A stretch of DNA of 56,982 bases from an uncultured bacterium (lineage in GTDB: Bacteria > CSSED10-310 > CAZUFC01). Below the pieces are notes generated by a model. The model saw nothing but the letters and a program-made list of their open reading frames with translations, ran no database searches and was not told the DNA's origin. The stretch lies in NCBI GenBank assembly GCA_964619725.1, contig CAZUFC010000047.1, positions 1 through 56,982 of the forward strand, given 5' to 3'. The position numbers and the translations under genes are program-made. Below, one piece after another: positions 11,666 to 49,906 of the stretch (position 1 is its first letter; every line of letters starts with the position of its first letter).

Positions 11666-13351
11666 ATGTTCAAATTGTCTACTTTTGCTGTTTTTTGTGC
11701 TCTGTCGGCAGTTCTTTTCTGCGGCGGTTCGACGGCTCAGGCTCAGTTTGACGATCCTGTCGAAAAAATGGAGCTGAGCTATGACATTAACGCAGCCAGA
11801 ATCGTTGATGATTTCGTGCCCGTTTTTCTAAAAATGGCGGAAGCCGAATCGCCTGAGAATAAGGAAATGATTTCAACGATAATCGATCTGACAGGCGTTC
11901 GCAGCCTGGATAACGTCAAAGCCAGGATGCTGGTTGATGATCGCGGCATAACCGGCGATTTTATAATGACTTTGGACCCTGAAAAACAACCGGGATTCCT
12001 GGGCCGGATAGCGCAAATCCCTCAAGTTTCCACAGAACTGGGCGACTATCTGAAAAAAGACGATATAATTATGTTCTGGACTATGGGTCATTTCGGTAAA
12101 TTTATTGAAACCCTGAACGATTTTGCCGGCGAACCCCAGCTTCGCCAAATAGCCCCGTTCATTCCCCCCGACCCACTGGCCATACTGAAAGGCTACCAAA
12201 TCGATGCGGAAAAGGATATTTTACCTTATTTCGCAGGTGAAATTTCCTACGCCCTTTTTCACTCGAAAAACCTGGACGACCAGGAAACCATGATAATGAA
12301 TTACTCTCCGCCGCAACTTCTTGCCGTAGCCGTCACGGATGGCGAGGCGGTCAAAGAAGTGATATTCAATCTTTTAAAGTCATTTTTGGGTCAGAAGGCT
12401 GATTCCATAGTAGGCGATCCTTATGAAACAGTGGGAGACTATGACTTTTACAGACTGGAAGGCCCCGCCCGACTGGTCGTCGGCGATAATTACATTTTCG
12501 TCACATCTGCAGGGGAGTATCTGAAAAGTATGCTGGAAAAAAAACAAGGCGACCTGAAAACGAAATCCGGCAACTATTTCGCCTATCTTAACGTCGATGC
12601 GTTGATCCTGGAAGTCCATAACGTGATGAAAAATTTGCCGATCAACTTTGACGGCAAAGCTGACATCGTCGATTTTCTGAAAACATTGACGGCCGAACGA
12701 CTGGGCTCCGCCGAATTCAATCTTTCATTAGAGGACGCTGCAGTTGAATACAGTTTCCAGGCTGAAAGGAAGTTACTGGAAGTCAAATACAGGGCCATCA
12801 AAGAACTGATGAACTTCGGGCTGAAACAGGTGAAAAAAACCGCATCCCTGGAAGATAATCAGGAGAACCTCACGCTGCTCGATAACGCATTGACGAAATA
12901 CGGCGAAGATTTCAACGGGGTATTTCCTGAAAATCTGGAAGGCCTGGTGCAGGAAGGTTATATCGATAAAATACCGGCCAATCCCTATACCCAGGAAAAA
13001 ATGAAAGAGGTTCCGCTGGGTGAATATTCCGAGGGAAACTACACCTACATGCCCTTGCAAGGAAATGATAAAATCGCCGGTTACTACCTTTTCATCTACG
13101 GCGGCGGAGAAGGAACAGGATATGACGTATTGACGCCGGAAAACGTCAAGGATGAGGAAAATTTCAAGCCTGCCAGGGATGGAATACCTGACGGACTCCC
13201 GAATTACGCTTTCGGCGGCATCGCCATCAAAATGCAGGAAAAATTCAACCAGTCCGAGAGCTCCTCCAGGGAAGCGGAAGAAGATTACGAAGCGGATGAG
13301 GATAATGAAGAGTCATCCGTTGAAAAGGAATCCGGAGCGAAAGGAATTTAG
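11666..13351 (+). CDS. Secreted hypothetical protein (DUF3352-like body plus C-terminal GspG/pilin-like segment)
   Basis: 561-aa ORF, strong SD, signal peptide ending AQA. C-terminal 'LDNALTKYGEDFNGVFPENLEGLVQEGYIDKIPANPYT' resembles the pseudopilin head; acidic tail. Confidence 0.6.
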   Translation: MFKLSTFAVFCALSAVLFCGGSTAQAQFDDPVEKMELSYDINAARIVDDFVPVFLKMAEAESPENKEMISTIIDLTGVRSLDNVKARMLVDDRGITGDFIMTLDPEKQPGFLGRIAQIPQVSTELGDYLKKDDIIMFWTMGHFGKFIETLNDFAGEPQLRQIAPFIPPDPLAILKGYQIDAEKDILPYFAGEISYALFHSKNLDDQETMIMNYSPPQLLAVAVTDGEAVKEVIFNLLKSFLGQKADSIVGDPYETVGDYDFYRLEGPARLVVGDNYIFVTSAGEYLKSMLEKKQGDLKTKSGNYFAYLNVDALILEVHNVMKNLPINFDGKADIVDFLKTLTAERLGSAEFNLSLEDAAVEYSFQAERKLLEVKYRAIKELMNFGLKQVKKTASLEDNQENLTLLDNALTKYGEDFNGVFPENLEGLVQEGYIDKIPANPYTQEKMKEVPLGEYSEGNYTYMPLQGNDKIAGYYLFIYGGGEGTGYDVLTPENVKDEENFKPARDGIPDGLPNYAFGGIAIKMQEKFNQSESSSREAEEDYEADEDNEESSVEKESGAKGI

Positions 13352-16463: not shown

Positions 16464-16537
16464 AACAGCATGAGGGATAGCAATATCCCGTTTTTTGTGC
16501 TAAATAAAACAGGACCTTTTCGGGTTCACGGAACTTG

Positions 16538-17593
16538 ATGATGAACCTTTATATGCGCAAAAAAATAATATTTATCGTCTCAATCCTTATCCTTGTCGCA
16601 GGCATTCACCAATATGCAGCGCTCTCTGAAATTCCGGTTATCGGCCTTCAATGGCGTTTTGTCGGAAACAAATGCGTCGTCAGGAGCGTCCAATCCAAGT
16701 CCGCCGCCTCATCACTGGGCATTGTACCAGGCGATATTATCCTCTCTATCAACGATCAGCCTGTTCATTCCGTCGACTCCCTGGAAAAAATCTATATGAA
16801 TCTCAACCTGAACGAAAAAATTGAAATCGAATGGAAAAGAAATCGGACAAATTATGAACGCCAAACCATTCTTCGTCTATACTCGCACGGCACAAAACAG
16901 AAAATTTTCCTTTTCCTCGGCATTTTCTTCGTACTGGCAGGAATTGCAATCCGCCTTGTAAACCCGCATAAATATGTTCTCCTGCTAGCATATTTCGTCA
17001 TGCTGCTGGGCGCCGGCATCCTTTTGCAGGATTTTCAAAAAGCTCGTTCCTTGTCCATATTGAGCAGCCAATGCATCCTGATCTGCGGATTGCTGTTTTT
17101 CCCGGTCTTCTATCTGCTTTTCCTGCTTTCCGCCTTCATGAACGAATCACACAAAATACGCTTCGATTACCTTAAACCTCTCATCTTTGTCCTTCCCCTC
17201 CTCTTCGCCGTCTTCCTGGCCCTGCTTCTGATGCTTCAATTCCTGGGTTACGAAAAACCTCCGGGTTTCAATATTTCAATTAATCTGCTCATCGGCGCCG
17301 TTTTTCAAACCATTGTCCTGTATGTGACGTTATACCTTTTCGGCGGCATAATTTTCATCGTCGTATACGCCAACCATATTAACGATAGATTGCGCCTGAA
17401 CCTCCTGCGCCGCTTCTCTCTCCTCCTGACCTTAACGCTCATTCCCCAAAGCCTCTCCCTTTTTATGGCCAATGTCGTGCTTTCACCCGGCCCCTGGCAA
17501 AATTACTTCATCCCCTTCTTCGCCCTTTTTCCCCTCGGACTGCTCTGGTTTGCCTGGAAATTCCCGAAAAAAAAGGGTTCAAAGGATGCCTGA
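16538..17593 (+). CDS. PDZ-domain multi-pass membrane protein
   Basis: PDZ signature 'SAASSLGIVPGDIILSINDQPV' after an N-terminal TM, then about seven hydrophobic helices and no output domain. Confidence 0.75.
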   Translation: MMNLYMRKKIIFIVSILILVAGIHQYAALSEIPVIGLQWRFVGNKCVVRSVQSKSAASSLGIVPGDIILSINDQPVHSVDSLEKIYMNLNLNEKIEIEWKRNRTNYERQTILRLYSHGTKQKIFLFLGIFFVLAGIAIRLVNPHKYVLLLAYFVMLLGAGILLQDFQKARSLSILSSQCILICGLLFFPVFYLLFLLSAFMNESHKIRFDYLKPLIFVLPLLFAVFLALLLMLQFLGYEKPPGFNISINLLIGAVFQTIVLYVTLYLFGGIIFIVVYANHINDRLRLNLLRRFSLLLTLTLIPQSLSLFMANVVLSPGPWQNYFIPFFALFPLGLLWFAWKFPKKKGSKDA

Positions 17594-17801
17594 TACGACG
17601 ATCCCCGCTTTCCATTGAACCCCCAGACGCCCTTCCTCCCCTGACGCACGCTCTTTGAACTTCAGCTTCCCGGAAGCGCCTCTGAAAATTATTCGCCTGT
17701 TCAATCCAATCGCTGTTTCAAATAGCGAAACAGCCGGTCAGCTTGTCTTGCGATGAATGTAAGGCAAGGAAAGAAGCCTCTCTGATCATGAGATTCGGCG
17801 C

Positions 17802-18446
17802 TTAAGCGCTTTGAAATAACAAATTACTGATGTTGTTTTCCAAATTCTTCTTGTTCTCGTTAGTTTCTTTCTCAATACGTTTAAGCTGCGACAGCGGTAT
17901 ATCTAAAAACGCGTCAGCCACCTCGGAAAAAAACTGTGTTCCTCTTTTCCGCCTGATCTCTTGCCGGGCCTCTTCATAAGACATAGGTTGCCGGTAAGGC
18001 CGGGCGTGTACCATCGCATCAAATGCATCGACTACGCAAAATACGGCTGAACCCAACGGTATCTCCGGTCCTTTCAATCCCCGGGGATATCCTGATCCGT
18101 CAACATGCTCATGATGAGTCAATACTATCTCTCGTACTGATTCTAAAAAAGGTATATCCTTCAATATGTTATAACCGATCCGGGGATGCTGGCGCATCTC
18201 ATCCCACTCCTCATCCGTCAAAGGACCCGGCTTCAATAATATACGGTCCGATATCCCTATTTTGCCGATGTCATGCAACAGCGCCCCCTTTTCCATAACC
18301 AGCTTGTCGTAGTTAGAGACTTTCAGCTTCTCCGCCAATAACCTCGTATAACTGGATACGCGCTGCGAATGCTCCCGCGTCTCGTGCTCCCTCGCCTCCA
18401 ACGCAGCTATCAAAGCATCTAATAATTTCATGTAATTCCTGTCCAT
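17802..18446 (-). CDS. Stand-alone HD-GYP phosphodiesterase
   Basis: HSQRV, LLHDIGKIG, HHEHVDGSGYPRGLKG, DAFDAM...RPYR. Confidence 0.92.
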   Translation of the reverse strand: MDRNYMKLLDALIAALEAREHETREHSQRVSSYTRLLAEKLKVSNYDKLVMEKGALLHDIGKIGISDRILLKPGPLTDEEWDEMRQHPRIGYNILKDIPFLESVREIVLTHHEHVDGSGYPRGLKGPEIPLGSAVFCVVDAFDAMVHARPYRQPMSYEEARQEIRRKRGTQFFSEVADAFLDIPLSQLKRIEKETNENKKNLENNISNLLFQSA

Positions 18447-18641
18447 TGATCCCTCTTGCTTTATTCCTACGCGCGAAAATGCTCGTTCCTCAAACCGGCA
18501 TTATCCGCCGGCGCTTTTAGTCAAAATATTACCCTTTACCGCAGTCAAATTATTCGATCAGCAAAACGGTCCCCTTATCGACGCGCCTTTCTTTTTATCG
18601 CAGTCGATCCCGTTTGTGCCGTCAACCCTGCAGCCTTCTCC

Positions 18642-18932
18642 CTACAAACTCGGCCGATGCCCCTCCACTACACTGTCCATCCTGGCTGCCAATTCCTCTA
18701 TTGCCGTCAGCTTCTCACGCCAAACAGCAGGATAATTCCTCTCATAAAACAATAAATACTGAGCTGAGCCTTTGACGGCAGTGATCGGTGACTTTAAATC
18801 GTGGATATAACTGGCCTCACGGTTGCTTTCAATCTGACGCTCAAGAAGACATTTCTTCTTTTTCAACTCATGCAGCTGTTCGCTTAAAACGCTATCGTCG
18901 TTCCTGTCCCGGATCATATTGCTGTCACTCAT
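18642..18932 (-). CDS. Small HisKA/DHp-only protein
   Basis: Coiled coil then H-box 'YIHDLKSPITAVKGSAQYL'; ends with no HATPase domain; SD AGAGGG. Confidence 0.72.
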   Translation of the reverse strand: MSDSNMIRDRNDDSVLSEQLHELKKKKCLLERQIESNREASYIHDLKSPITAVKGSAQYLLFYERNYPAVWREKLTAIEELAARMDSVVEGHRPSL

Positions 18933-18997
18933 CGGACTTCCCTCTTTAAGTTCTCACAACTCTGTTCATTTCGCCTGCGCGATAACCTGAAAATCAC

Positions 18998-19267
18998 CTA
19001 CATTTTGTAACTTTCAGCAATCAGATGAATCTGCTTCAACAAAAAATCCACCACTTCCAGCTTTTCGCGATAATTTTCCGGACAGTTAGTCGGATAATCT
19101 AACATCATTTGGGTCGATCCGTATAAACTCGCCAATATGTTGTTTATGTCGTGCACGTACAAGTTCTTGCCTTCTTCCGCCAGGTAACCCTCTATCCTCT
19201 TTTTTTCGTTCTCCAGTATTCTTATCTGCCTCTCGATATTCATCTCTCCGCTGGTTTCCCCCTTCAT
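18998..19267 (-). CDS. Small HisKA/DHp-only protein
   Basis: H-box 'YVHDINNILASLYGSTQMML'; aligns with 18642..18932 (N.P...REKL). Start uncertain (19243, 19267, 19294 or 19345). Confidence 0.7.
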   Translation of the reverse strand: MKGETSGEMNIERQIRILENEKKRIEGYLAEEGKNLYVHDINNILASLYGSTQMMLDYPTNCPENYREKLEVVDFLLKQIHLIAESYKM

Positions 19268-19325
19268 CCCTTTACTTTTGAATCCATACGGCATCTCTTG
19301 TTTTCGCCCCTCAATAACAACTAAC

Positions 19326-19619
19326 CTAAGCAGCCGTCTCGTCATTCCTGTTGGCTTCCTCAGCCAATGACATCAGCTCCATGAATTCTTCTATCTGTCC
19401 ATATATCCTGTCGACCCACTTCTTCGATCCTTCCGGAAATTCCTGCCGCTCCTCATGTATCTCTGTCGCTAACTCCTTCAATTTTTCAATTAATGGCTGC
19501 AATTCCCGGTTCAGCTCTACATTATGACTCCCCTTGTAAGCCGTCAGAGCCAATTGCCTGGTCTCTTCCTTCAATTGCCTTATTTTCGCAGCCTTTTCGC
19601 TTTCAGATTCATGAATCAT
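19326..19619 (-). CDS. Small degenerate DHp-like protein (His replaced by Arg)
   Basis: 97 aa, SD GGAGGGG. Same helical pattern as the two neighbours: 'NRELQPLI' at the H-box, with Pro 24 residues later as in both paralogs. Confidence 0.6.
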   Translation of the reverse strand: MIHESESEKAAKIRQLKEETRQLALTAYKGSHNVELNRELQPLIEKLKELATEIHEERQEFPEGSKKWVDRIYGQIEEFMELMSLAEEANRNDETAA

Positions 19620-19674
19620 TTATCTTCGCTTTCCCCTCCCACAGTAATGCGTTCTTATACTGAAATAAAAGCTT

Positions 19675-20268
19675 TTAACTCGCTTCGACCATCTCCTCTA
19701 CTATGTCCAATAATCGAAAAATCTTCTTACGCATATCCGCCAAATCCATCGGCTTCTTCAAAAATGCATCAGCCCCATAAGACAATATCCGCTCTTTGAC
19801 GTCCGTCTCTACCGCACCCGAAATCGCCAGTATCTTCATGTCCTTCTTATCAGGCATCGACTTTATTCGACGACATACCTCGAATCCATCAAAATTGGGC
19901 ATGTAAATGTCCAATATCAATAAATCATGGTCTCGCTTGCCGATCTCTACCAGCGCCTCATATCCGTCTCTCGCCAGATACACCTCAAAAAACTTCGGAT
20001 AATGGTCCAAAAGCTCCTTTATCGTCAACGCCTCCGGTTCATTGTCCTCCGCTATCAAAACCTTGTAACGAGCCGATTCCAGTCCCGGAGGCACCGGCAT
20101 ATTGTGGCGCTCTATGAATTCAAGAAGATCCTTCCTCTGTATTCTTCTGTGATTTCCAGGAGTCTTGAATGCTTCTAAACTCCCCTGCTCAATCCAGTTG
20201 TAAACCGTTTTTATGTGCACGCCCAGCATCCTGCTGACGTCCTGCGTTGTAAATATCGTTTTTTTCAT
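19675..20268 (-). CDS. Response regulator: excisionase-like HTH (HTH_17) plus receiver domain
   Basis: 'FTTQDVSRMLGVHIKTVYNWIEQGSLEAFKTPGNHRRI' then REC motifs IAEDN, LILDIYMP (phospho-Asp), ISG, FLKKP. Confidence 0.92.
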   Translation of the reverse strand: MKKTIFTTQDVSRMLGVHIKTVYNWIEQGSLEAFKTPGNHRRIQRKDLLEFIERHNMPVPPGLESARYKVLIAEDNEPEALTIKELLDHYPKFFEVYLARDGYEALVEIGKRDHDLLILDIYMPNFDGFEVCRRIKSMPDKKDMKILAISGAVETDVKERILSYGADAFLKKPMDLADMRKKIFRLLDIVEEMVEAS

Positions 20269-20343
20269 TACCGATCCATCCTTCGTTTGATTTACCGATA
20301 ATCAAACTATTACTATATTTACCAATTTTTTTCTTTTTGTCAA
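20268..20343 (-). promoter_or_regulatory. Regulator promoter region with triple direct repeat and inverted repeat
   Basis: Plus-strand TTACCGAT (20268), TTACCGAT (20292), TTACCAAT (20319). Inverted repeat GTTTGATT-N7-AATCAAAC (20285-20307). Minus-strand TTGACA at 20338-20343. Confidence 0.55.
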
Positions 20344-20462
20344 CCAAAATAAAAATTAATCTGAATTTTATGTTTGAACCGGCGCTCTCATTTATCGCTT
20401 TATTATAAGCGGGAGAGAGGATTGCAAGAATCCTTGACGGCATGAAGGGGGGATAAAATTTT

Positions 20463-26736: not shown

Positions 26737-28776
26737 ATGAAAAAATTCACCCGCATATTATTGATTTTCAGCGCTGCATATATCCTGCCTGCAATATTTG
26801 TTTTCCTGCTCGGAATGTCAATGTTCGCCCAGGATCGCGCCGGTAAAATTGCGGCTCAATACTGGGGTGTCATCATCCAACCTGCCGCTGCTGTCGGAAA
26901 TCTGCTTCATGGAATACTCGACGGCTTTTGGGGAGTTTTTCTCGTTTTCTTATCCGGAATGGGAGCAGCAGTTTTTATGCTCCTTAAGTTTCGCGGAAAA
27001 GCTGTTATCCCAGCGTCGCTGACTGCAGCTTTTACCTTTTCAATTGTCGGCGTCCTTAAAGCCTCCTCCAGATTATTGACTTCCGCTTATGTTTTTTTTG
27101 CCGCCGCTCTTGTGTGCTTCTTTTTCATGGGTTTTGTGGAATTAAAGAAAAAACAAGTTCCTGCGGAAAAAAAGGACAGGACTCAGATAAGCGCAAGAAC
27201 CGGGCTTGTATTTCTGATTATTCTGATAGTGTTGGGCGCGGGTTTCCGTTTATACAGGCTGAACGTACACCCCTACGGCTATGCAGGACATGCCGCATAC
27301 CATGCACTGGAATCCCACCGGTTGATGCAGCAAATTGAAGCAGGGACGTATCTGAGCCCCAAAGCGCAGCCCTGGATGGTGTCCCTGCTGAAATTCATTT
27401 ACCATTTCGGTCAAAGCATACAACGCGTTCTCGATATGGCCGCTTTTAAAATGTGGGGCTTCGGGTTCCTCTCTCAACGATTAGTCGCTGTAATGATCGG
27501 CATAATTTCCATTACTATGACCATGCTTTTCACACGACGCCTGTTCGGATTGCCCACTGCGCTCCTGACGACTCTCTTCTTCACCTTATCTCCCATTCAC
27601 ATCACCTGGAGTCGCTATTCGGGATGCATGCAAATTCAATCCATTCCGTACCTGATCGGCGTATATCATCTGCTCTTTCTCGCCGTAAAAAGGAAAAGTT
27701 ACATTTTGGCTATCCTTTCCGGAGCGCTCGCAGGCACGGCCGTTTTTCTCTATTCCCCTAATTTCCTGACGCCGTTCGTCGGCAGCGCCTTTCTCCTTTA
27801 TCATCTCCTGCTCGCCGAAAAAAAACAGAATGTCCTTATATTGTTATGTCTTTTCCTTCTGTTTACCGGCATAGTCGCTGCCCCGCGCGTGGTCATCACC
27901 GGCGGTGATATGGAATTACTGCTTGATACGCCTTTTTATCATAAACCGGAATGGACGCAACCCGCCAAATTATGGGAAAATATCAGATTCCTCGGTCGGC
28001 AGCTCTTTATTCATCCCAGAGGAATGCATTATTTTCTTAAAGGTTCCGCTTTCAACGGTCTCGCAACCGCCGCGGCCTTGATGGGCATATTGTATTCCTT
28101 CTTCAGAATAAAAGACGGCAGGTTCGTTCTTTTGCTGCTGATGACGGGCGCGGGTCTGGCGCCGGCTGTTTTTTCAGACGGACCTTTCCCCCGACGATAT
28201 TTCAATGTTATACCCCCGTTATTCATTCTGGCAGGTTACATGATCGCAAGATGGACTTATATCGCCGGAAGCTTAATTTCTTCTGAAAATATTCAGAAAA
28301 AAATATATTCGATTTGTATCTTTGTCCTGCTGCCTTTGATCATGTCTCTGAGTGCGGATACCTATTTCAACCGGATTTCCGCGCATGAAACAGACAGAGG
28401 TTATGAACACCGGCTGGCCGGCGAATTTATTCGGGATCAACTCAAGGATTACCGTGTATACGTTTCCGATGCGGCCGTCAATTATCCCCACATTCAAGTC
28501 TTTAATTCGGATGAGTATATTGAAGGCGAACTGAAACAACGAGTAAAGCTTATTCCCGATGCGGAATTTCTGGATTTTATCCTCAAATGGCAACCTGCGG
28601 GTGAAAAAGCAGCGTTTGTTCTAAATACAGGCGATAATTTCAACGAGGTGCGCACGGCATTGAGAAGGCGTTTTCCTGATGCCCGGCTGGTCCAGTTGCC
28701 GGATAAAGATACGATTTCAATCGGCAAACCGAAGCTCAGGTTCAATCAAGATATACAGTTTTACTTGATAGAATGA
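26737..28776 (+). CDS. GT-C fold membrane glycosyltransferase (ArnT/PMT-like, family 39/83)
   Basis: 'GFRLYRL...P.G', 'RLVAVMIG', 'LSPIHITWSR', 'RRYFNVIPP'; many TMs and a C-terminal extracytoplasmic domain. Confidence 0.75.
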   Translation: MKKFTRILLIFSAAYILPAIFVFLLGMSMFAQDRAGKIAAQYWGVIIQPAAAVGNLLHGILDGFWGVFLVFLSGMGAAVFMLLKFRGKAVIPASLTAAFTFSIVGVLKASSRLLTSAYVFFAAALVCFFFMGFVELKKKQVPAEKKDRTQISARTGLVFLIILIVLGAGFRLYRLNVHPYGYAGHAAYHALESHRLMQQIEAGTYLSPKAQPWMVSLLKFIYHFGQSIQRVLDMAAFKMWGFGFLSQRLVAVMIGIISITMTMLFTRRLFGLPTALLTTLFFTLSPIHITWSRYSGCMQIQSIPYLIGVYHLLFLAVKRKSYILAILSGALAGTAVFLYSPNFLTPFVGSAFLLYHLLLAEKKQNVLILLCLFLLFTGIVAAPRVVITGGDMELLLDTPFYHKPEWTQPAKLWENIRFLGRQLFIHPRGMHYFLKGSAFNGLATAAALMGILYSFFRIKDGRFVLLLLMTGAGLAPAVFSDGPFPRRYFNVIPPLFILAGYMIARWTYIAGSLISSENIQKKIYSICIFVLLPLIMSLSADTYFNRISAHETDRGYEHRLAGEFIRDQLKDYRVYVSDAAVNYPHIQVFNSDEYIEGELKQRVKLIPDAEFLDFILKWQPAGEKAAFVLNTGDNFNEVRTALRRRFPDARLVQLPDKDTISIGKPKLRFNQDIQFYLIE

Positions 28777-30938
28777 AAAGCGATAAAGCATTTTTAATCG
28801 TTCTGCTGCTCTTTTTCGTCATATTGTGTCTGTTTTTCTCTCCAAGGCTGCGCTACGACGGTCTTCATTACCTTGAAACGGCCCGTTCCCTGGTCATTGA
28901 TAAAGACATCAATACATTCAAGGAAAGGGTTTACAGGACAGAACCGGCCTGGCACGGGTTCTATCGTCGTCCTCTGTTCCAAACCTCCAAACTGCCCATC
29001 GGTTTCGTCGGTTTCATGAGAGGACAGGAAATAACGGAAAACGGATATGCTTTTACCGTATTTCCGACCGGTAACACCATCATGTGGTTGCCCTTCGCAG
29101 CCGCAGCCCATGCGACGGTGCGTCTTTTGAACGGCTGGGGGATGAATATTCCGGAAACAGGTTGGTCAAAACCCTATGTAATCATTTCGGCCATGGGAAG
29201 CGTCTTCTATGCCGTTTTCGGCTTGTTTTTCTGCTATCGTATTCTCAGGCGATGGTTCGACGCTTTTCCCGCTGCTTTCGCCGTCGCTTCCGTTTTCGCC
29301 TGCTTTAATCTGATACCCTTTATCTTTATAGACCCCTTTTATTCGCATATCCTCAGTTTCTTCATAATCGGCGCTTTCATCATGATGCGCTTTCAATCCC
29401 TGGATCATAGACGCTTTTCAGACTTCTTTCTGTGGGGATTGCTCGGCGGATTAAGCATTACCGTCCGATACCAGGACGTTACCCTTTTTCTGATCCCCTT
29501 CGTGGATTTTGCGATTGACTTCTCGAACCTTGACAAACTCTCACCGGAAACACGAAAAATAAGAAAAAAACGATTCTATTTCTCCTCGCTCGTTTTCATC
29601 ATCGGTTCCCTAACGGCAGTGATTCCTCAGTTGGTTTACTGGAAAATTCAGCACGGCGCTTTCATTATTCCCCCTGAAACAATGGGCACGGGACATATCC
29701 CAACCTTTAACCTTTTCAAACCCCAAATCATTGCCATGCTTTTTTCCTCCCACCACGGACTCCTCTCCTGGATGCCCCTGACCGCTCCCGCAATTCTAGC
29801 CTTTTTCGCCTTTCCTTTTAAAAAAGATAAAAGACTGGGAACCTTACTGATAGTTATTTTTCTCCTGCAGACATACTACAACAGTTGTCGAAGCGAATGG
29901 TGGAACCTGGGTTTTTCCGTCCGGCGATATTCGAGTTACGCCCTATTTTTTATGATCGGCATGGCCATTATTGCAGAATTCTTTCGAAAAAAGACCTCAA
30001 GAATCCTGTTGACTCTCATCGTCGCATTTTTTGCATATTGGAATATTCTGTTTATGATTCAATTTTACGACGCCCCCACCATTCAATGTGCGGGACCTTA
30101 TTACCGTAAAATAGTAGGGGAGGCCGATGCGTACAAACCTCCCTCATATCACTGGATCGGCCCCCAACCCCAAATGATGCCGGAATTGACTTCTGCCGCC
30201 CTTATGTGGTTCGTCAAAGCATCTGTTCCGGCTGCATCCTTCGCGGGCATTGTTTCGCCTGAATCCAGCCAGTTTTATTATTCGCTGGCAGCGGGAGCCG
30301 GGTTTTTCATTATAGCCGTTCTCCTGTTTCTGTTTTCCAAACTTCAGCTCTTCAACGCCGGACTGATACGAGGCAAAATAAGCACGGCATTCATTGGCCT
30401 CTACTTTCTCCTTTTCACAGCCGCCATTCTTCTTATGCACTACCGGACGGAACCGGTTCGAGTACTTGAAATCAAAAACGGACAATTCAGCGGAGCGACC
30501 CGAACATTGAGACTAAAAAAAGGAGATGTTTATCTGGGAGAAAACGAAGTCGCGGAACTTGATACGGGCGAATTGATTAAAATTGAAATGAAGGAACGGA
30601 TTTCGACTGATCGCATCGAAGTGACGCTGCTTTTTCCCGTCATCATTCCAGGCGATACTGATTTTGAAGATACTTTCAGGATTCTGTTGACATCGGGGAA
30701 ATTGGTCGTCAGACGATACGTCTCAGTGAATGATCTCTCCGCATACCGATGGACGCCTCCGATATTTGGCGGATTGCAGTTTAATTACAGTTTCAAAGTG
30801 ATCACCATGAACCTCAAGCAACGGATTAAACTGGAAAAAATAGTGTTATCGATGGACGGACACGGCATACCGATAAAGCTGATTGGCGTGGCTTTATACA
30901 AAAATGAACTCACCGGGAACAGGGATTATTCATTTTAG
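28773..30938 (+). CDS. Putative GT-C membrane glycosyltransferase
   Basis: 'DG..Y....RSLVIDKD', 'GL...VRYQD', 'LFSSHHGLLSWMP', 'WW..GFS.RRY'; ATGA overlap with upstream gene. Confidence 0.7.
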   Translation: MKSDKAFLIVLLLFFVILCLFFSPRLRYDGLHYLETARSLVIDKDINTFKERVYRTEPAWHGFYRRPLFQTSKLPIGFVGFMRGQEITENGYAFTVFPTGNTIMWLPFAAAAHATVRLLNGWGMNIPETGWSKPYVIISAMGSVFYAVFGLFFCYRILRRWFDAFPAAFAVASVFACFNLIPFIFIDPFYSHILSFFIIGAFIMMRFQSLDHRRFSDFFLWGLLGGLSITVRYQDVTLFLIPFVDFAIDFSNLDKLSPETRKIRKKRFYFSSLVFIIGSLTAVIPQLVYWKIQHGAFIIPPETMGTGHIPTFNLFKPQIIAMLFSSHHGLLSWMPLTAPAILAFFAFPFKKDKRLGTLLIVIFLLQTYYNSCRSEWWNLGFSVRRYSSYALFFMIGMAIIAEFFRKKTSRILLTLIVAFFAYWNILFMIQFYDAPTIQCAGPYYRKIVGEADAYKPPSYHWIGPQPQMMPELTSAALMWFVKASVPAASFAGIVSPESSQFYYSLAAGAGFFIIAVLLFLFSKLQLFNAGLIRGKISTAFIGLYFLLFTAAILLMHYRTEPVRVLEIKNGQFSGATRTLRLKKGDVYLGENEVAELDTGELIKIEMKERISTDRIEVTLLFPVIIPGDTDFEDTFRILLTSGKLVVRRYVSVNDLSAYRWTPPIFGGLQFNYSFKVITMNLKQRIKLEKIVLSMDGHGIPIKLIGVALYKNELTGNRDYSF

Positions 30939-33421: not shown

Positions 33422-34570
33422 ATGAATTACAGTGAAATTCTGAGTCTGGATGCCGGAGAACATTTCGCTGTATCCGCTCACGGCAATTACATCATCTTTG
33501 ACCTGGGACGCCCCACGCTCTGGTTTATTATCTGTGCTGCTTTATTTCTTTTATGGACCCTCTCTTTGAAAATTCCCGCAACGCGAAAATTCCGCTTCAT
33601 CTTTGCCGTTCCGCCTGCCGCTGCTTTTTCTTTAATGCTACCCTGGGCATTTCATTTCTTCCTGCTGACAGGTCTTCTAGTCTTCGCCCAGAAAAAAACG
33701 GAAAATTTCTTCAATCTCCTCATAAAAGCTTGCTTTTTCATACTTTGTCTTTTCTTTTTCTTCCATTTCCCGCCGCATACAACTCTTGGTCTGGTTGACG
33801 TCGATCACGGAGAAACGTCTTATTTTTCCGTCCCGTCACCCTTTGTCGTCGATCGCTTGAGCGTATCGCCGGACGGAAAAACTGCCGTTATCGTATCCAG
33901 TCTGCCGTTCTCCATCGGCGTGGCCGACGTCGTTTCCATTGTAAATAGCGTCAGAAGCAGAAGACATATTTTCCTCAGTTCCCGTGAGTCGCCCTCTGTT
34001 CTGCAACCGCTCGATCAGTCCATCCTCATGCTCAAAAATGGAAAAATAAAAGAATGGCTGGGTACAGGAGAATGGCTCGATACAGGGCTCACTGACATGA
34101 AATTAATCGACTGCTGGAACGAAGAGGCATTCCAACCTCATGAGGAGGGACTCTACGGATATGATCTTATCGCTCACAGGAAATTCTTCATCGATTATGC
34201 CTGGAACGCCGGTTCCTTTTTCCGGATGCAATACCAGTTCCTGTGCTCGCCCGATCATTCCACCTGTATCATATTGATTCGACAGGGCCGTACCGGCATG
34301 CTCGTTTTCAGAGGTTCCAATCCGCATTTTCTCGGATTCCAGAGAATCGGCCGTTTCGAAGGTTACGCTGCGCCCCGGGAAACCTGGTTCACGGGCCGGC
34401 AGCTTGTCCTGGGAAACCGTGTCATTGACGTCCTGTCAGCCTCCGTCATTCCTCACAGAGCAATAAATTTCTCAAAATACCTCCAATATCCGGGCAATAA
34501 ACCCTACATGGCCGTACCGGACGAAGGAGGCGCTGAATCCGCCCTGAAGGTTTTCCGGGTAAGCGATTGA
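33422..34570 (+). CDS. Hypothetical membrane protein with possible beta-propeller-like segment
   Basis: 382-aa ORF; three TM segments, then 'SVSPDGK' and 'CSPDHS' repeats. Confidence 0.55.
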   Translation: MNYSEILSLDAGEHFAVSAHGNYIIFDLGRPTLWFIICAALFLLWTLSLKIPATRKFRFIFAVPPAAAFSLMLPWAFHFFLLTGLLVFAQKKTENFFNLLIKACFFILCLFFFFHFPPHTTLGLVDVDHGETSYFSVPSPFVVDRLSVSPDGKTAVIVSSLPFSIGVADVVSIVNSVRSRRHIFLSSRESPSVLQPLDQSILMLKNGKIKEWLGTGEWLDTGLTDMKLIDCWNEEAFQPHEEGLYGYDLIAHRKFFIDYAWNAGSFFRMQYQFLCSPDHSTCIILIRQGRTGMLVFRGSNPHFLGFQRIGRFEGYAAPRETWFTGRQLVLGNRVIDVLSASVIPHRAINFSKYLQYPGNKPYMAVPDEGGAESALKVFRVSD

Positions 34571-42014: not shown

Positions 42015-43773
42015 ATGGTTGCTCAAACATTACCGTCCCTATAAAAAATTCGTGGTCAAGCTGGTAGTTTTTACTGTTCTTCATGCCGGCGTTGCTGCGG
42101 CCATGCCCTATTTTTTCATCTTCATCATCGACGGCATCAAAGGCGAAATCGATCCTTCCTTTATCCGTCTCAGCGTTCTGGGGTACCTAGGCCTGGGCCT
42201 GCTGACTTTTCTTTTATCCGTATATACAGCCTGGTTAAGAGTTTCCATGAATTTGAGGCTCGAGTGGGATTTTCGTCAGCAAACCTTCAACCATATCCTC
42301 AATTTAAGCCGGGATTTTTTTCATCGCTTCAAGACCGGCGACGTGGTTACCCGCCTGACGGACGACGTAGGCCGCAAATTAAGCTGGTTCTCCTGTTCCG
42401 CGCTTTTCAGAAGCCTGGACTCTCTTCTCCGCATAATCTTCTGCCTGGTCATCATGTTTTCGATCAATCCGGTCTTGACCCTGGTGGTCCTGATTCCGCT
42501 GCCCGTCCAATTCATCATATTCGTCAAGTCGACCGGCATCCTTCATCGCAGATTCCGCGCGCTTCAGGATATTATATCAAAAGTGACCGATGCCATGGCC
42601 ACCTGCTTCTCCGGGATCAGAGTCGTCCAGGCCTATACCATGGAAAAACGTCAGGCCCGCAAATTCCGAGAAATAGCGGAAGAGCGGGCTGATGCTGAAA
42701 TCAGGGCCGCTAAAGTGCATGCCCTGGTTCATTCCTTCTACGGATATTTCTGGCAAACCGCCATAATAATGGTACTGCTTGTTGGAGGATGGTTCATCAT
42801 CAACGATCGCCTGACCATCGGCGAATTCGTAGCCTTTGATTATTACGTGGTTATGCTGGTCTTCCCGATGATGGACATCGGCCACGTTCTCGTCAACTAC
42901 AGAAGAGCCTCCGTTTCCATTAAAAGGATCAGGGAAATTGAAGACCACGTTCCGCAGGTCGCCGAATCTGAAAAAGCCGCAGACGTCCCGATTGAAAAAG
43001 GATCAGTGGAATTTATTAACGTAGGATTGGAAGTAAACGATCAGAGAATCCTTCATGATGTCTCTTTTAAAGCCGAACCCGGTAAAATGACAGCCCTCGT
43101 CGGAACTGTCGGAAGCGGAAAAAGCACTTTGCTCAGCCTCATAGTACGACTCCTGGACCCCACCCAGGGTGAAATCAAAATCGACGGTCGGCCCATTAAG
43201 GAATTGTCCCTGAGAGCCCTCAGGGCTGCCGTAGGATTCGTCCCCCAGGAAGCCCTGCTTTTTACGGATACGATCAAAAATAATATCCTGTTCGGCCGCA
43301 AAAACCTGACGGAAGAACAGATGCTGTGGGCAGCCGATATCGCACAGTTGACGGGCGAAATCAATAAATTCCCGCATCAATATGAAACGAAAATAGGCCT
43401 GAGAGGCATGACCGTATCGGGAGGTCAAAAACAAAGAATAGCCCTGGCGCGCGCCATTGTCGCCAAACCGAAAATACTTATCCTCGACGACGTCACCGCT
43501 GCACTGGATGCCGATACTGAAACAAAATTATGGGAAAAATTGTACGATGTCCTGCCGGGTATCACCACTTTCGTTGTTTCGCACCGCACTGCCACCCTGG
43601 AAAGAGCCGACGAAATACTGGTCTTCTACAGAGGCCACATAGTAGAACGGGGCCTTCATCACGAACTGATGGACGCCAGAGGTCTCTACTACAAAATATA
43701 CTCCAAAAGAAAACTGGAAGACTCAGGCGTCACACCGCTCCTCACCGCCCTCTCCGACATGATCGATTACTGA
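41989..43773 (+). CDS. Heterodimeric ABC exporter subunit (MdlA/YheI-like)
   Basis: TMD plus NBD: GTVGSGKS, VSGGQKQR, degenerate Walker B LDD, VSHR. Confidence 0.92.
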   Translation: MNWKNHNLRWLLKHYRPYKKFVVKLVVFTVLHAGVAAAMPYFFIFIIDGIKGEIDPSFIRLSVLGYLGLGLLTFLLSVYTAWLRVSMNLRLEWDFRQQTFNHILNLSRDFFHRFKTGDVVTRLTDDVGRKLSWFSCSALFRSLDSLLRIIFCLVIMFSINPVLTLVVLIPLPVQFIIFVKSTGILHRRFRALQDIISKVTDAMATCFSGIRVVQAYTMEKRQARKFREIAEERADAEIRAAKVHALVHSFYGYFWQTAIIMVLLVGGWFIINDRLTIGEFVAFDYYVVMLVFPMMDIGHVLVNYRRASVSIKRIREIEDHVPQVAESEKAADVPIEKGSVEFINVGLEVNDQRILHDVSFKAEPGKMTALVGTVGSGKSTLLSLIVRLLDPTQGEIKIDGRPIKELSLRALRAAVGFVPQEALLFTDTIKNNILFGRKNLTEEQMLWAADIAQLTGEINKFPHQYETKIGLRGMTVSGGQKQRIALARAIVAKPKILILDDVTAALDADTETKLWEKLYDVLPGITTFVVSHRTATLERADEILVFYRGHIVERGLHHELMDARGLYYKIYSKRKLEDSGVTPLLTALSDMIDY

Positions 43774-45407
43774 ATGTCGTATTCCTTTAACTTGCGGTAC
43801 AGAGTCACTTTGGATATGCCCAGAATCTTCGCGCTTTTTTCCTTGTTCTTGTTGTTGGATTCGTAGACTCTTTTTATGTGGAAGGATTCCACTTCTCTCA
43901 GGGACATATTTTCCGGTAGCGCTGCATCGGTTTCTGCAGCGGGTGCGGATTGTTTTTTTTCTGGAATAAGCAGTTCAGGAGTAATCCACTGGTCTTTTTC
44001 AGCGAAGATAACGGCTCTTTCCACAGTATTTCTTAATTGCCTGACGTTTCCTTCCTTCCAGTCCTGATTGTTCAGCCAGGTGAAAGCTGCGGGAGCGAAG
44101 CCGGCAATTTTTTTATCGAATTCCCTGGTTATTATTTTCAGAAAATGTTGAGCCAGAGCAGGTATATCATCAGTTCGCTCTCTTAAGGGCGGCAGATAAA
44201 TGGTGACGACGGCGAGCCTGTTGAGCAGATCGGCGCGAAAAGACCGTTCTTTCACCATTTGATCTATATTTTCATTTGTTGCTGCGATGATTCTGACGTC
44301 GACGTTTTTCTCCTGAATGCTGCCGACCGGCCTGATTTTTCTTTCGGCCAGGACTCTCAGGGTTTTAACCTGTAAGGACAAAGGCATGGAACCGATTTCA
44401 TCCAGCAGTATCGACCCTCCGTCTGCAGCCTGAAAAAGACCCTTCTTATCAAAAGCAGCGCCCGTGAAAGCTCCTCTAACATGACCGAACAACTCCGACT
44501 CCAGCAGATTCTCCGGCAGCGCGCCGCAGTTTATGGTGACATAAGGACCGTTGCGCCGTGCGCTCAGATTATGAATCGTACGGGCCGCAACTTCTTTCCC
44601 CGTACCTGTTTCACCCAATATCAGCACATTGGACTTGACCTCCGAAATCTTGTCGATGATTCTGAATACCTTCTGCATAGCCTCGCTTCCGCCCACCAAT
44701 TCCCCCAACCTGTCCAATCGCTTGACCCTGTGACGCAGGTCCCTGTTTTCCATGTTGAGCTGATGGACGTGGAAAGAATTATCCAGCGCGATGGCCAGCA
44801 TGTTGGCGAATGTCTCAGCGAAAAAGAGGTCCTGTTCTGAGAATCCTGTTGAGGAAGTTCTCGTATCGATATAAAGCGTGCCGATCGTTGCATCACCTTG
44901 ATACTTTTTCAAAGGTATGCATATTACCGATAAAATTTGTAAATTCCGGATCGATTCAGCCTGGCTGAATTTCTGATCGCTGCAGACGTCGCGGCTGAAA
45001 TATGGACGGTCCGTCTTCAATACTTCCCTCACAATAGTTCTGGAAAACTCCAGGTCCTCTCCTTCCAGGTTCCATTTCGCTATCGTTTTCAATTCCACCG
45101 TGCGACCTGAACCCCCCTCTTTTGATTTGAGGATAATCAGTCCTTTTTCTGCGGGAATAAATAAACGCAATTCTTCCATAACCGTTTTAAGCAAATAATC
45201 AAGATCATGAGTCGACAGTATTTTTCTGCTGACTTCGTTCAATGCAGCCAATCTCTTCTGATCCACGTTCAACGAAGTTTCAGCAAGCTGTTCGCTCATG
45301 AAGTCGCCGTCCATTTCTCCTTCCAGTTCTTCCATCATGGAAAAGTAGTCCTCATCCTGATCGCTGCTTCGTTCATTTTTTATTTCATCATCATTATAAC
45401 TAGTCAT
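43767..45407 (-). CDS. Sigma54-dependent enhancer-binding protein (GAF-AAA+-Fis HTH)
   Basis: GAF (SVICIPL...GTLYID), GETGTGKE, ESELFGH.RGAFTGA, LLDEIG, HTH 'SAKILGISKVTLYRKL'. Confidence 0.95.
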   Translation of the reverse strand: MTSYNDDEIKNERSSDQDEDYFSMMEELEGEMDGDFMSEQLAETSLNVDQKRLAALNEVSRKILSTHDLDYLLKTVMEELRLFIPAEKGLIILKSKEGGSGRTVELKTIAKWNLEGEDLEFSRTIVREVLKTDRPYFSRDVCSDQKFSQAESIRNLQILSVICIPLKKYQGDATIGTLYIDTRTSSTGFSEQDLFFAETFANMLAIALDNSFHVHQLNMENRDLRHRVKRLDRLGELVGGSEAMQKVFRIIDKISEVKSNVLILGETGTGKEVAARTIHNLSARRNGPYVTINCGALPENLLESELFGHVRGAFTGAAFDKKGLFQAADGGSILLDEIGSMPLSLQVKTLRVLAERKIRPVGSIQEKNVDVRIIAATNENIDQMVKERSFRADLLNRLAVVTIYLPPLRERTDDIPALAQHFLKIITREFDKKIAGFAPAAFTWLNNQDWKEGNVRQLRNTVERAVIFAEKDQWITPELLIPEKKQSAPAAETDAALPENMSLREVESFHIKRVYESNNKNKEKSAKILGISKVTLYRKLKEYDIQ

Positions 45408-45424
45408 GCCGGCGCTCCCCTCTG

Positions 45425-48400
45425 CTATTGACTCAGTTTCTTCAGTTCAACGTATGCTTTAAAAAGCATCGGTCGGTAGTCCATATTTTTAAATATCTCC
45501 TTTGCGTCAGTCAAATGCTTCAACGCTTCCGAACTCCTTCCTGCAGAAGCACAGAAACGCCCATATTCCAGCAGAGTAACTCCCAACTCACGCTTCCGGT
45601 TTTCTTTTTTAAAAATCTCAAGACTCTTTTTGAAGCGCTCCTCCGCCTCTATCGCATTACCCCGCATGCTCTGCACCATCGCCTCAATTCGCAGCCTTTT
45701 CCCGATGGTCGTCCTTTGCGTCTCCTCCTTTTCAGCGATACTGCGGCATAAAATCATAGCTTTTTCTGCATTTCCCCTTCCTATCATCGCCTCGCATAAT
45801 CCTAACTCGCCGTTTATCATTAAATTCGTCAACCCATTCCGCTTCGCAGACTGAACAGCCTTCTGGAACAATTTCCCGGAAACATCGTATCTTTTCCTCA
45901 GTATCTCCAAATACCCCAAATTAACGATAGCCTGTATCTTCCACGAATTAGTCTCCGGTAGCTCCGCCATATCAATCACCCGGGTAAAGCATTTTTCCGC
46001 AGAATTCAGCGCACCTTTCGTTACATTCAAATTGCCCAGATTTATCAACGATAAAGGCATACTATTAGTCTTGCCGAAATGCTCCGCAGCCGACAAACTT
46101 CGCCTGTAATACTGCTCGGCTTCCCGCCATCGCCATTGGGCCGAATAGGTTAATCCCAGGTTATTATTAATGATGATCCAACTGTTATGATCGCCTATAA
46201 CCCCGCATATCTTCAATGCTTCCGTAAAATATTCCCTGGCTTTTTCGTAATCGCCTTCACTGTAACTGATCGTTCCTAAATTATGAAAACATGACATCTG
46301 TCCCGATTGATCCTCTGTCTGACGGAAATGCCCTAAAGCCATGCGGAACCGTTCGCCTGCCTCCCCAAATTTTCCCTGACGATACAGCAGCGAAGCCAGG
46401 TTATTTTCCAGCCTGGCCTTTTCTGATGTCTCAAGCAAATCATCTCTTCGGTTTTGCTCAATGATTTCCCTGTAAAGTTCGCCGGCCTTCTCGAAGAATC
46501 CCGATTGGGTATTCCATTCACCATAAGAAAATTTAATCCGCAATTTCTGAGCCGCTGTTTCATCATTCTGAACCGCAGCATCAAGAGCATTTGAAGCTTG
46601 ATCGAGTAAGCTTTTCGCTTCATCCATTCCGCCGATCCGCTGCAAACAATTGGCTTTCATCTGCAAACCGATGGATGCCTCCAACGGCAGTCCTCTTTCT
46701 GTAAAATACTCAGCCAAAAAACGATAATAATCAAGCGCTGTCCGCCATTTTCCCATTTCATACAATGAACGGGCAGCGCTTCGTATAACACGGATTTCCA
46801 GCTCCTTCAATTCCCTTTTTCTATTTGAATGAAAAACCAGCCTTCCGCTTTCATTTTCAAGAGGAATAAATTTCATGATACTGGAAAATACGCCGTAGGC
46901 ATCCTCCAGGTTGTAACGTTTCCGGTTCTCATATCCCAGCTCGAATCCGAACCTCAGTCCCCGTTCGGCATCGCCTGCTTCAATGAAATGATAGGCCTTC
47001 ATTCGCTTTATGGTCATATCTTCGTCACTTTCAGAAAACCTGTGAATCAGATAATCTCCTATTTTTCGATGCATCCGGACGTATTCCCCGGAAGATACTC
47101 TTTCCCGCAAGCAATCCCGCAGCATGGCGTGTGAAAAGGAGTACCAGGGTTCTCCGGGAGCAGTTTTTCTGACAAGCATACCCTGTTCGACCAGGGAATC
47201 GATCATAGAAGACGCTGTTGCGTCTGTCGTTTCCAGCAAGGCTGAAACCATCTTTTGCGTAAATCCTGTTTCAAAAAGAGCGAGCATCTTTATTTTTTCA
47301 ATTGAATTATGAGTGAATTTTTTCAGATTATAAACGCAGTAACTTTTTGCATCATCAATGGGTATCTGTTCAATATATTCCGGGGAAATGTTTTTGAATA
47401 GGCGGCGTCCCTTTGAAAAATCCAATTGCTTTTCGGAAATCATAGTCTGCAACAGTATTTTCAAATAGAGGAGATTGCCGCGCGTGCGACGGTAAAGCGC
47501 GTTAACCGCATCCGGGGGTATTTCTGACTCCAGGACGTAAAGAAAATCCAAGCAATACCTTGTTATTTCATCCTTGCTGAAAAATTGAAGTTTTGTCCAT
47601 TTTTTGGGATCAACGAAGGGAAACTTCTCCAGAGAATTTTCAGACGCGCTCATTACCGCGAAAAGCGGCTTATCATTGACGCAGGTCATAACGCGATGAA
47701 GGTAGTAATTCATGGCCTGGCGATCCAGCCCCTTCAGCAGATGGGCATCATCAAAAATCACGGCTGCTGGTTTGCGTTTCGATGTAATTTCCAATCGCGT
47801 GAGGGCACGGCGAAATTCTTCCGGCAGGCGTCCCCTTATTTGCCTTTCCGTTGAATTTGAATAATCCGCTTCATTTTCGAGATGCTCCTCCTCAGAGGCG
47901 CCGGCAATATTCTCCGCAAAACTGATCATATCCGCAGTCACGTCAGTTCTATCTTTCGCTCCAACCATCAATGCAGGAATATTCATTACCTCAAAACGAT
48001 TCCTCAGTTCATCCAGCATTCTCGTTTTGCCGCAGGAAGGTCCGCCCGTGATGAAAAAGGCTCTATCCCCCTTCCGTTCGTTTATCCGGCTTATCATTCC
48101 TTCAAGCAATTGTTGACGGCATGAAAAAAACTGTATCGCCGGTTCCGGGATAAAATCATCAACGTTATGCCCGTCTTCTTCAGCCAACGCTCGGATGACC
48201 TCAGCGCATTGCCCCGGCGACGGCCGATAAGCAGGTCGCCTGGCCAGCATGGAATAAACCAGTCGTGAAAGCTTCTCGGGAAAATCAACTCTCAAGCTGC
48301 TTTCAATTCGTGGAACGGGTTTCTTCAGATGAGCTTCCAGCAATTCTGCTCGCGTATCGCCCGAATAGGGCGGAGAACCTGTAAAAATCTCATGCCAGAT

Positions 48401-49000
48401 CACTCCTAAAGCATATATGTCAGCCGCAGCTCCCGTTTTATGCCCCCTGATGACCTCCGGCGCCATATAACCCACGGTTCCTGATACCTTCCCTTCACTT
48501 TCGGCCGCCTCAAGCGGTTCAGCCAATCCGAAATCCAGAAGCTTAATCCGGCCTGTTCCGCTTAACCGTATGTTGGACGGCTTAATGTCCCCGTGCCTGT
48601 AACCGTTCCGGTGTATAAATCGGAGCCCCTGAAGCAAATGGAAACTCTGAAACAGAAATTCGCGGTCCGGATGTCCCGGTTCAACGCCTGAACCGTATTC
48701 TGCACCGTCTACCAATTCCATAGTAAAAAATGGCTTACCGTCATATTGCCCGAAATTCATTATCTCCACTACATTGGGATGTCGAAGAGCCGATAATTTG
48801 CGGAATTCGGCGGAAAGACTCTCGCCGTCTGAGTCGGACCTGCGGAAAAACTTCAGCGCCAACTTACGGCCATACCGCACGTCCGTTACCCGATAAACGA
48901 CAGAATCCAATCCCTCGCCAAGCTTTTCTTCAACATGATAACGATTTTGTATGATTTTACATGTTAAATCCATCTGAACGGTAAGCTGCGCCCCTTTCAC
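45425..49000 (-). CDS. Ser/Thr kinase - P-loop NTPase - TPR protein (STAND-like)
   Basis: ALK, HGDIKPSN, DFG, YMAPE; GGPSCGKT Walker A, IFDDAH Walker B, GNLLYL; MalT-like TPR array. Start may be ATG 48973. Confidence 0.9.
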   Translation of the reverse strand: MKGAQLTVQMDLTCKIIQNRYHVEEKLGEGLDSVVYRVTDVRYGRKLALKFFRRSDSDGESLSAEFRKLSALRHPNVVEIMNFGQYDGKPFFTMELVDGAEYGSGVEPGHPDREFLFQSFHLLQGLRFIHRNGYRHGDIKPSNIRLSGTGRIKLLDFGLAEPLEAAESEGKVSGTVGYMAPEVIRGHKTGAAADIYALGVIWHEIFTGSPPYSGDTRAELLEAHLKKPVPRIESSLRVDFPEKLSRLVYSMLARRPAYRPSPGQCAEVIRALAEEDGHNVDDFIPEPAIQFFSCRQQLLEGMISRINERKGDRAFFITGGPSCGKTRMLDELRNRFEVMNIPALMVGAKDRTDVTADMISFAENIAGASEEEHLENEADYSNSTERQIRGRLPEEFRRALTRLEITSKRKPAAVIFDDAHLLKGLDRQAMNYYLHRVMTCVNDKPLFAVMSASENSLEKFPFVDPKKWTKLQFFSKDEITRYCLDFLYVLESEIPPDAVNALYRRTRGNLLYLKILLQTMISEKQLDFSKGRRLFKNISPEYIEQIPIDDAKSYCVYNLKKFTHNSIEKIKMLALFETGFTQKMVSALLETTDATASSMIDSLVEQGMLVRKTAPGEPWYSFSHAMLRDCLRERVSSGEYVRMHRKIGDYLIHRFSESDEDMTIKRMKAYHFIEAGDAERGLRFGFELGYENRKRYNLEDAYGVFSSIMKFIPLENESGRLVFHSNRKRELKELEIRVIRSAARSLYEMGKWRTALDYYRFLAEYFTERGLPLEASIGLQMKANCLQRIGGMDEAKSLLDQASNALDAAVQNDETAAQKLRIKFSYGEWNTQSGFFEKAGELYREIIEQNRRDDLLETSEKARLENNLASLLYRQGKFGEAGERFRMALGHFRQTEDQSGQMSCFHNLGTISYSEGDYEKAREYFTEALKICGVIGDHNSWIIINNNLGLTYSAQWRWREAEQYYRRSLSAAEHFGKTNSMPLSLINLGNLNVTKGALNSAEKCFTRVIDMAELPETNSWKIQAIVNLGYLEILRKRYDVSGKLFQKAVQSAKRNGLTNLMINGELGLCEAMIGRGNAEKAMILCRSIAEKEETQRTTIGKRLRIEAMVQSMRGNAIEAEERFKKSLEIFKKENRKRELGVTLLEYGRFCASAGRSSEALKHLTDAKEIFKNMDYRPMLFKAYVELKKLSQ

Positions 49001-49160
49001 CGATTCTTCAATATGTTAACTCGATCATCATCTAAAAGCAACAGTCCGGCAGCAGGACTGCGTTCGATTGAATCCCCTTTGACGTAATTTTTCAACACCA
49101 CATAATCTTACGGAAAAAAAAGATACTTTTCCGGCGCTTATGAGCTTCGGCAGCTCATGC

Positions 49161-49201: not shown

Positions 49202-49234
49202 AATAATCAGCGTCTTATACGGACACTGCGGATA

Positions 49235-49888: not shown

Positions 49889-49906
49889 AATGAGCATCTG
49901 AAAAAT

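Follow-up and report, generated by a model that had tools for sequence, protein, structure and literature searches.

Can a DHp domain without an ATP-binding domain persist as a gene of its own, and what could such a gene do beside a response regulator? The question is raised by five ORFs at positions 17802-20268 of the window, by which we mean the entire 56,982-nucleotide stretch that was analyzed. The window corresponds to contig C47 in full, part of a draft genome of 9.2 Mb that is the sole member of its family among 14 genomes of the phylum. The original prediction described a cassette of five co-oriented genes, and the ORF listing and Pfam searches agree with this description: an HTH_17-REC regulator, three small ORFs and an HD-GYP gene are all encoded on the minus strand within this span (Table 1).

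Table 1. Coordinates and predicted products of the five ORFs of the cassette.
ORF	Position in window	Strand	Description
P0001	19675..20268	-	HTH_17 (excisionase-type)-REC response regulator, 197 aa
P0002	19326..19619	-	Three-helix protein, 97 aa, no known family; DHp not supported
P0003	18998..19345	-	Coiled coil + DHp-only mini-protein, 115 aa as listed
P0004	18642..18932	-	Coiled coil + DHp-only mini-protein, 96 aa; paralogue of P0003
P0005	17802..18446	-	Stand-alone HD-GYP phosphodiesterase (predicted), 214 aa

The successive intergenic gaps from P0001 to P0005 measure 55, 31, 65 and 195 nt. These lengths suggest that the five genes form one transcript, and the 195-nt gap before P0005 could uncouple the HD-GYP gene from the rest. 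Promoter and terminator scans at the locus yielded chance-level signals only. The cassette is flanked upstream by a pair of aconitase-family large and small subunit genes and downstream by a gene convergent on the HD-GYP gene (16535-17593, plus strand). This neighbor encodes a PDZ domain and, behind it, a multi-pass stretch of hydrophobic sequence, with no cytoplasmic output domain, and looks like a sensor module without a transmitter; no paralogue of its membrane part was found in the genome. Elsewhere in the window, we observed a cluster in which a GAF-sigma54 activator lies with two Ser/Thr kinase genes, one of them also encoding AAA and TPR domains (43770-52072, minus strand), as well as four long ORFs of 382-721 aa without any Pfam match at E<=1e-5 (11666-13351, 26737-28776, 28773-30938 and 33422-34570, plus strand).

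Two DHp-only proteins and a third helical protein

P0003 and P0004 matched the Pfam HisKA family with E-values of 0.0037 and 0.00015, respectively, both under the curated cut-off. We also built a DHp profile solely from CA-containing kinase ORFs (122 sequences), on which P0004 scored 24.9 bits and P0003 16.3 bits. The maximum obtained with shuffled sequences was 7.5 bits for P0004 and 10.0 bits for P0003, and none of the 2000 shuffles of each protein reached the real score. Among 566 charged 97-residue windows taken from long genes of this genome, five scored as high as or higher than P0003 and P0004, and all five contain kinase H-boxes. The HisKA/DHp match of both proteins is above background. 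Of the 59 HisKA matches in the genome, only these two lie in frames shorter than 130 codons.

The H-box of P0003 reads Y-V-H65-D-I-N-N (His codon at 19151-19153), with Asn at H+4 and no Pro at H+5, and that of P0004 reads Y-I-H44-D-L-K-S-P (His codon at 18801-18803), with Ser at H+4. The histidine and the acidic H+1 residue are kept in both (H65-D66 and H44-D45). The two H-boxes and the common N.P...REKL motif that had been pointed out in the original prediction are all present in P0003 and P0004. A Tyr at H-2 is common to the two proteins, compared to none of 107 training kinases (the members of the 122-sequence set that fit the H-box pattern); two kinases of this genome outside the training set carry Phe at this position. 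Ser at H+4, as in P0004, was found in five of the 107. The chains of P0003 and P0004 stop where helix 2 ends, 50 and 52 aa beyond the His, respectively.

The monomer model of P0004 (pLDDT 81) presents a hairpin of two helices (H40-63 and H69-91) and a long N-terminal helix before the H-box. Fold searches returned generic helical bundles, the best Z-scores (10.7 and 11.6) being to unrelated ones; Foldseek gave no match at E<=0.001, and a PDB sequence search with the P0003/P0004 pair profile gave nothing under E 0.5. In the ESM Atlas, P0004 was found at 0.97 with clusters of 82-100 aa, including one 95-aa cluster that is 100% HisKA. These neighbor clusters share 158-169 features with P0004 and are probably not of the same family.

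No HATPase/CA signal was detected in any of the six frames (stops read as X), either across 17700-20400 or across the whole window. The claim that P0003 and P0004 stop before any ATP-binding domain and that the window holds no histidine kinase is therefore upheld. The two proteins are not sensor histidine kinases, since the CA domain is absent from the gene. With HisKA present and both HATPase and REC absent, they belong to the "HisKA, no HATPase" class, which P2CS defines as "phosphotransfer protein (HisKA)" (PMC2716373). Such nonenzymatic kinase-like proteins are discussed as possible phosphatases in archaea by Galperin et al. 2018 (PMC5847659). As described in these sources, members of the class resemble P0003 and P0004 in their HisKA-like sequence, conserved His and lack of HATPase, and a phosphoacceptor, phosphotransfer or phosphatase role is proposed for them. 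The archaeal proteins described by Galperin et al. carry PAS/GAF sensors, whereas P0003 and P0004 have a coiled coil only and lie in tandem in a putative operon with HTH_17-REC and HD-GYP genes.

The original prediction counted three DHp mini-proteins. This holds for P0003 and P0004, which score above their nulls, but not for P0002, which scores like generic helical sequence. P0002 had no HisKA match in Pfam and reached 9.3 bits on the DHp profile relative to a shuffle maximum of 9.2; eight of the 566 background windows scored as high or higher, two of them without kinase sequence. Comparison with DHp by hhalign gave a probability of about 2%, the N.P...REKL motif is absent, and the best ESM Atlas match was at 0.76 only. 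An in-register alignment of P0002 as a pseudo-DHp with His replaced by Arg was also rejected, as 1107 of 5000 shuffles and 105 of the 566 windows did as well, which is the level of chance. The profile, window, hhalign and Atlas results indicate two DHp proteins and one unrelated three-helix protein. P0002 is coding-like with a purine-rich ribosome-binding site and is likely a small helical accessory protein.

Intact genes or remains of kinases

HisKA-only genes are usually dismissed as broken kinases, and P0003 and P0004 might likewise be non-functional remains of decayed kinase genes. We consider this very improbable, even if the locus is a singleton with weak HisKA scores and the databases offer many precedents: in a profile search for short HisKA proteins, nearly all of the 120 matches listed (out of 908) resemble cut or frameshifted kinases, and most short HisKA-only entries that we inspected look like broken or contig-cut kinases. 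Pseudogenes had been expected to leave frameshifted HATPase remnants downstream. None was found in any frame, and the sequence is coding-like with a signature of selection. Only 65 and 195 nt follow the stops of P0003 and P0004, respectively. A kinase gene of the same genome that is interrupted by a TAG stop ten codons past the His of its H-box (contig C40, 50502-51158, minus strand) has its CA domain still in frame behind the stop, whereas no CA remnant follows the mini-proteins, which are moreover truncated at the same point. Contigs from another sample of the study run through both stops without differences; as they come from the same strain, the agreement guards only against assembly error. 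We also rejected a split kinase with a CA-only partner. Six of the 61 CA-bearing ORFs of the genome have no DHp match, none of them near the locus; they are divergent full-length kinases, a CheA-like protein and the stop-broken C40 gene.

Coding statistics likewise argue against decay. Hexamer coding scores as high as those observed occur in 0.5% (P0002), 0.3% (P0003) and 1.7% (P0004) of 10,723 shadow ORFs, and all three small ORFs have a purine-rich site before a start. Each mini-protein gene combines coding bias with a ribosome-binding-like site of its own. In P0003, codons 1-17 score as non-coding; the protein is therefore probably 81-98 aa long, its true start probably being Met18 (19294), Met27 (19267) or Met35 (19243).

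An ungapped alignment of P0003 with P0004 spans 78 residues at 26% identity. Their nucleotide identity is 0.38, 0.62 and 0.23 at codon positions 1, 2 and 3, which is random at third positions and conserved at second positions, a pattern that speaks against relics, and different codons encode 12 of the 20 identical residues. With any of 41 alignable kinases of the genome, position-2 identity is at most 0.46 and 0.49 for the two mini-proteins. However, 75 of 820 kinase pairs of this genome reach 0.62, and the position-2 signature alone gives no date for the loss of the CA domain. From H-28 to H+20, amino-acid identity to the best kinase is 0.27 and 0.24, and 0.24 within the pair, and the local alignment score of the pair is 102 relative to 73 and 95 for the best of the 122 kinases. 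These sequence comparisons suggest that P0003 and P0004 are intact genes that arose by an old tandem duplication and have been under selection at the protein level. The simplest history would be one truncation followed by duplication and long selection on the protein. The pair would thus represent a bare DHp that was kept by selection and duplicated.

We then searched for relatives of the cassette. P0002, P0003, P0004 and P0005 each form a single-member protein cluster. Searched against 1.84 billion representatives, the P0003/P0004 pair profile retrieved both mini-proteins, two longer HisKA-bearing proteins and one repeat protein, and direct homologue searches with the mini-proteins returned only themselves or full-length kinases. 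No short ORF matched them in the 13 remaining genomes of the phylum, of which four fall below 80% completeness or nearly so. P0001 has 118 relatives at 34-48% identity, its own entry excluded, and a single-sequence scan of genomes with P0001 found nothing. With an HTH-REC profile we fetched 160 loci (the best 80 of more than 570 per scan), of which 113 contain true HTH-REC genes and 89 have at least 1.5 kb of downstream sequence. Within this set of best matches, none of the 113 loci has a complete short DHp-only ORF, two have an HD-GYP gene and 33 have a full kinase. These relatives are less than 50% identical, which indicates that the cassette is not a family trait and says nothing of close kin. 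The search for conserved synteny that the original prediction had suggested recovered none; the layout is absent from every relative searched and the cassette is a singleton. The author of the original prediction knew of no described system with such a layout; HisKA without HATPase is already a named class. Our search of the main texts of the largely open-access literature retrieved no experimental work on naturally occurring DHp-only mini-proteins and no study describing this layout. Known from one genome, the association of tandem DHp-only genes with HTH_17-REC and HD-GYP genes is a new arrangement within an already named class.

Possible roles beside the regulator

P0001 matches HTH_17 (E = 9e-16) and Response_reg (E = 4e-22) in Pfam, as well as TIGR01764. 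Its receiver site is canonical, with E74/D75, the phosphoacceptor D120 (19909-19911), S150 and K172. The acidic pocket, Asp acceptor, Ser/Thr and Lys are all in place, and P0001 is predicted to be a phosphorylatable response regulator. Adjacency makes it the candidate partner of the mini-proteins among the 86 receiver-bearing ORFs of the genome.

Autophosphorylation depends on the CA domain, and P0003 and P0004 are therefore unable to autophosphorylate. They have G+11, S+12 and Q+14 in common (S+12 occurs in eight of the 107 kinases), positions that in HK853 lie on the helix face contacting receivers. That both keep them suggests that they share a receiver. In HisKA domains, the residue responsible for phosphatase activity is described as a Thr or Asn at H+4, in the motif E/DxxT/N (PMC3510030); the Asn of P0003 fits this description and the Ser of P0004 does not. 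The excised DHp of HK853 (residues 250-315) is reported to dimerize, to bind RR468 and to remove its phosphate through His260 and Thr264 (PMC5727384). This isolated, receiver-binding dimer is a laboratory construct, whereas P0003 and P0004 are natural genes.

The reading that we tentatively prefer is that P0003 and P0004 dock on the P0001 receiver and dephosphorylate it or absorb its phosphate without ATP; we favor it over forward relay, kinase antagonism and decay. The original idea of kinase-less DHp proteins tuning the receiver remains the best one for P0003 and P0004, although it applies to a pair with an unrelated helical protein and not to an array of three. Under such an ATP-independent phosphatase or sink, the two proteins would dimerize into DHp four-helix bundles, and P0001, as their partner, would be phosphorylated by a kinase elsewhere in the genome or by acetyl phosphate. 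Of the two, P0003 (H-D-x-x-N) would more probably be the phosphatase, and P0004 (H-D-x-x-S) a sink or decoy. If the five genes share one transcript, the mini-proteins may provide negative feedback.

P0005 matches HD_5 (E = 3e-37). HD-GYP motifs have been defined as HD, HHExh(D/N)GxGYP, KPG and RxY[K/R], with RxYR described as largely responsible for c-di-GMP specificity (bioRxiv 10.1101/2021.11.05.467447). H58-D59, KPG, HHExxDGxGYP and RxYR are all present in P0005, as expected of a predicted HD-GYP phosphodiesterase, and the genome has five GGDEF matches. P0005 has no REC or sensor domain. For the proposed link to cyclic-dinucleotide turnover, a direct form is not supported: any such link is most simply co-transcription, and P0005 more likely serves as the transcript's output than as a target of phosphorylation. 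It could be a co-induced, c-di-GMP-lowering output that itself stays outside phospho-control.

Alternatively, the mini-proteins might be forward phosphotransferases that are phosphorylated by a hybrid-kinase receiver encoded elsewhere in the genome and hand the phosphate on to P0001, in the manner of Spo0B, ChpT or PhyT but without a pseudo-CA domain; the two paralogues could then integrate two inputs. We regard this as possible but doubtful. Spo0B and ChpT keep a pseudo-CA domain. The combination of DHp and degenerate CA that marks this type is not found in P0003 and P0004, given where they end after the His. Retention of the His and the H+1 Asp in both proteins and the absence of a kinase for P0001 within the window are consistent with a relay, and P2CS files HisKA-only proteins under phosphotransfer (PMC2716373). 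PhyT, Spo0B and ChpT are described as kinase-derived DHp-type His proteins that move or remove phosphate without autophosphorylation (PMC5898713), similar to the role considered here, but the degenerate ATPase domain kept in PhyT has no counterpart in P0003 and P0004. The RedE protein of Myxococcus xanthus (PMC2755868) is likewise described as a non-autophosphorylating kinase-like protein with a poorly conserved HisKA, which accepts phosphate from one receiver and dephosphorylates another. Unlike the mini-proteins, it has 242 aa, keeps a HATPase_c domain and works in the same system as a kinase, RedC. Since RedE does both, the forward relay and phosphatase/sink readings are not exclusive. The characterized DHp-type examples PhyT and RedE nevertheless both keep an ATPase-like domain, no donor was identified, and the complete kinases near 33 of the 113 HTH-REC loci (from the best 80 of more than 570 per scan) suggest that this regulator family is often served directly.

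It is less likely still that the mini-proteins act as kinase antagonists or adaptors, in which the coiled coil and DHp would heterodimerize with a full-length kinase (or bind HD-GYP or P0002) and block or redirect it with no need for His chemistry. The long N-terminal helix and the atypical residues flanking the His (Tyr at H-2 in both, 0/107) would suit such a role, and the RetS-GacS DHp co-complex was among the weak fold matches (7n0e, E 1.1), as a precedent only. However, the His, the Asp at H+1 and the receiver-facing residues belong to the 20 that have stayed identical since an old duplication, and none of the 41 genome kinases compared is close to the mini-proteins, although a heterodimer partner is expected to be similar.

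Returning to the preferred reading, an ATP-independent phosphatase or sink, P0003 and P0004 are encoded together with a plausible partner and a plausible output, all in a small set of soluble proteins. The proposal by Galperin et al. (2018) that proteins of this class act in nature as phosphatases or phosphotransferases can thus be put to a direct test in vitro, with a value limited by the locus being a singleton in an uncultured lineage.

DHp-only genes in other genomes

An ESM Atlas lead pointed to genome G041, in which a 63-aa DHp-only gene ends a kinase/receiver operon. Across the phylum of G041 (Solibacteraceae, i.e., Acidobacteriota), we found stand-alone mini-DHp genes in at least 17 of 251 sampled genomes (loci L173 and L184-L199). 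This count combines seven seeds and ten new profile matches and is a lower bound, with 20 candidates scored per genome. None of the 17 ORFs has a CA match and all end 52-63 residues after the His. None is in tandem, and no HD-GYP match was detected in their flanks of roughly 1.5 kb. These genes are single-copy with other H-box types, whereas P0003 and P0004 form a tandem pair beside an HD-GYP gene. On the profile of the G041-phylum proteins, P0003/P0004 scored 13.6 bits, below the median kinase DHp (18.5 bits), which suggests a probably independent origin.

Two families stand out among these genes. Seven of the 17 (L189 and L194-L199, in seven genomes) lie directly behind a stand-alone HTH_17 gene that is divergent from a REC-sigma54 activator, and their H-box reads H-[RQ]-L-N-N-Q-L-G. 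Without the acidic H+1 residue but with Asn kept at H+4, they carry what would be a phosphatase-only signature. Six others (L187, L188 and L190-L193) are coiled-coil and DHp-only proteins of about 95 aa, like P0004, with the motif H-E-[IV]-N-N-P-L, and no two-component gene was detected in the flanks examined. These conserved families are better test cases than the P0003/P0004 locus.

A broader scenario, which we consider rather unlikely as a whole, is that free-standing DHp-only proteins evolved repeatedly as a third, ATP-free tier of two-component systems, often right behind an excisionase-type HTH gene. At the present locus, duplication would have given rise to one copy of phosphatase type and another of relay or sink type. 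The two, possibly joined in a heterodimer, would control how far an orphan HTH-REC regulator is phosphorylated and, through it, the breakdown of c-di-GMP.

Finally, we observed in the genome of the cassette REC- or sensor-HisKA proteins that have no HATPase and end in a short conserved tail (contig C10, 58619-59455, minus strand, together with L009 and P0126). The C10 type constitutes a second CA-less architecture in the same genome.
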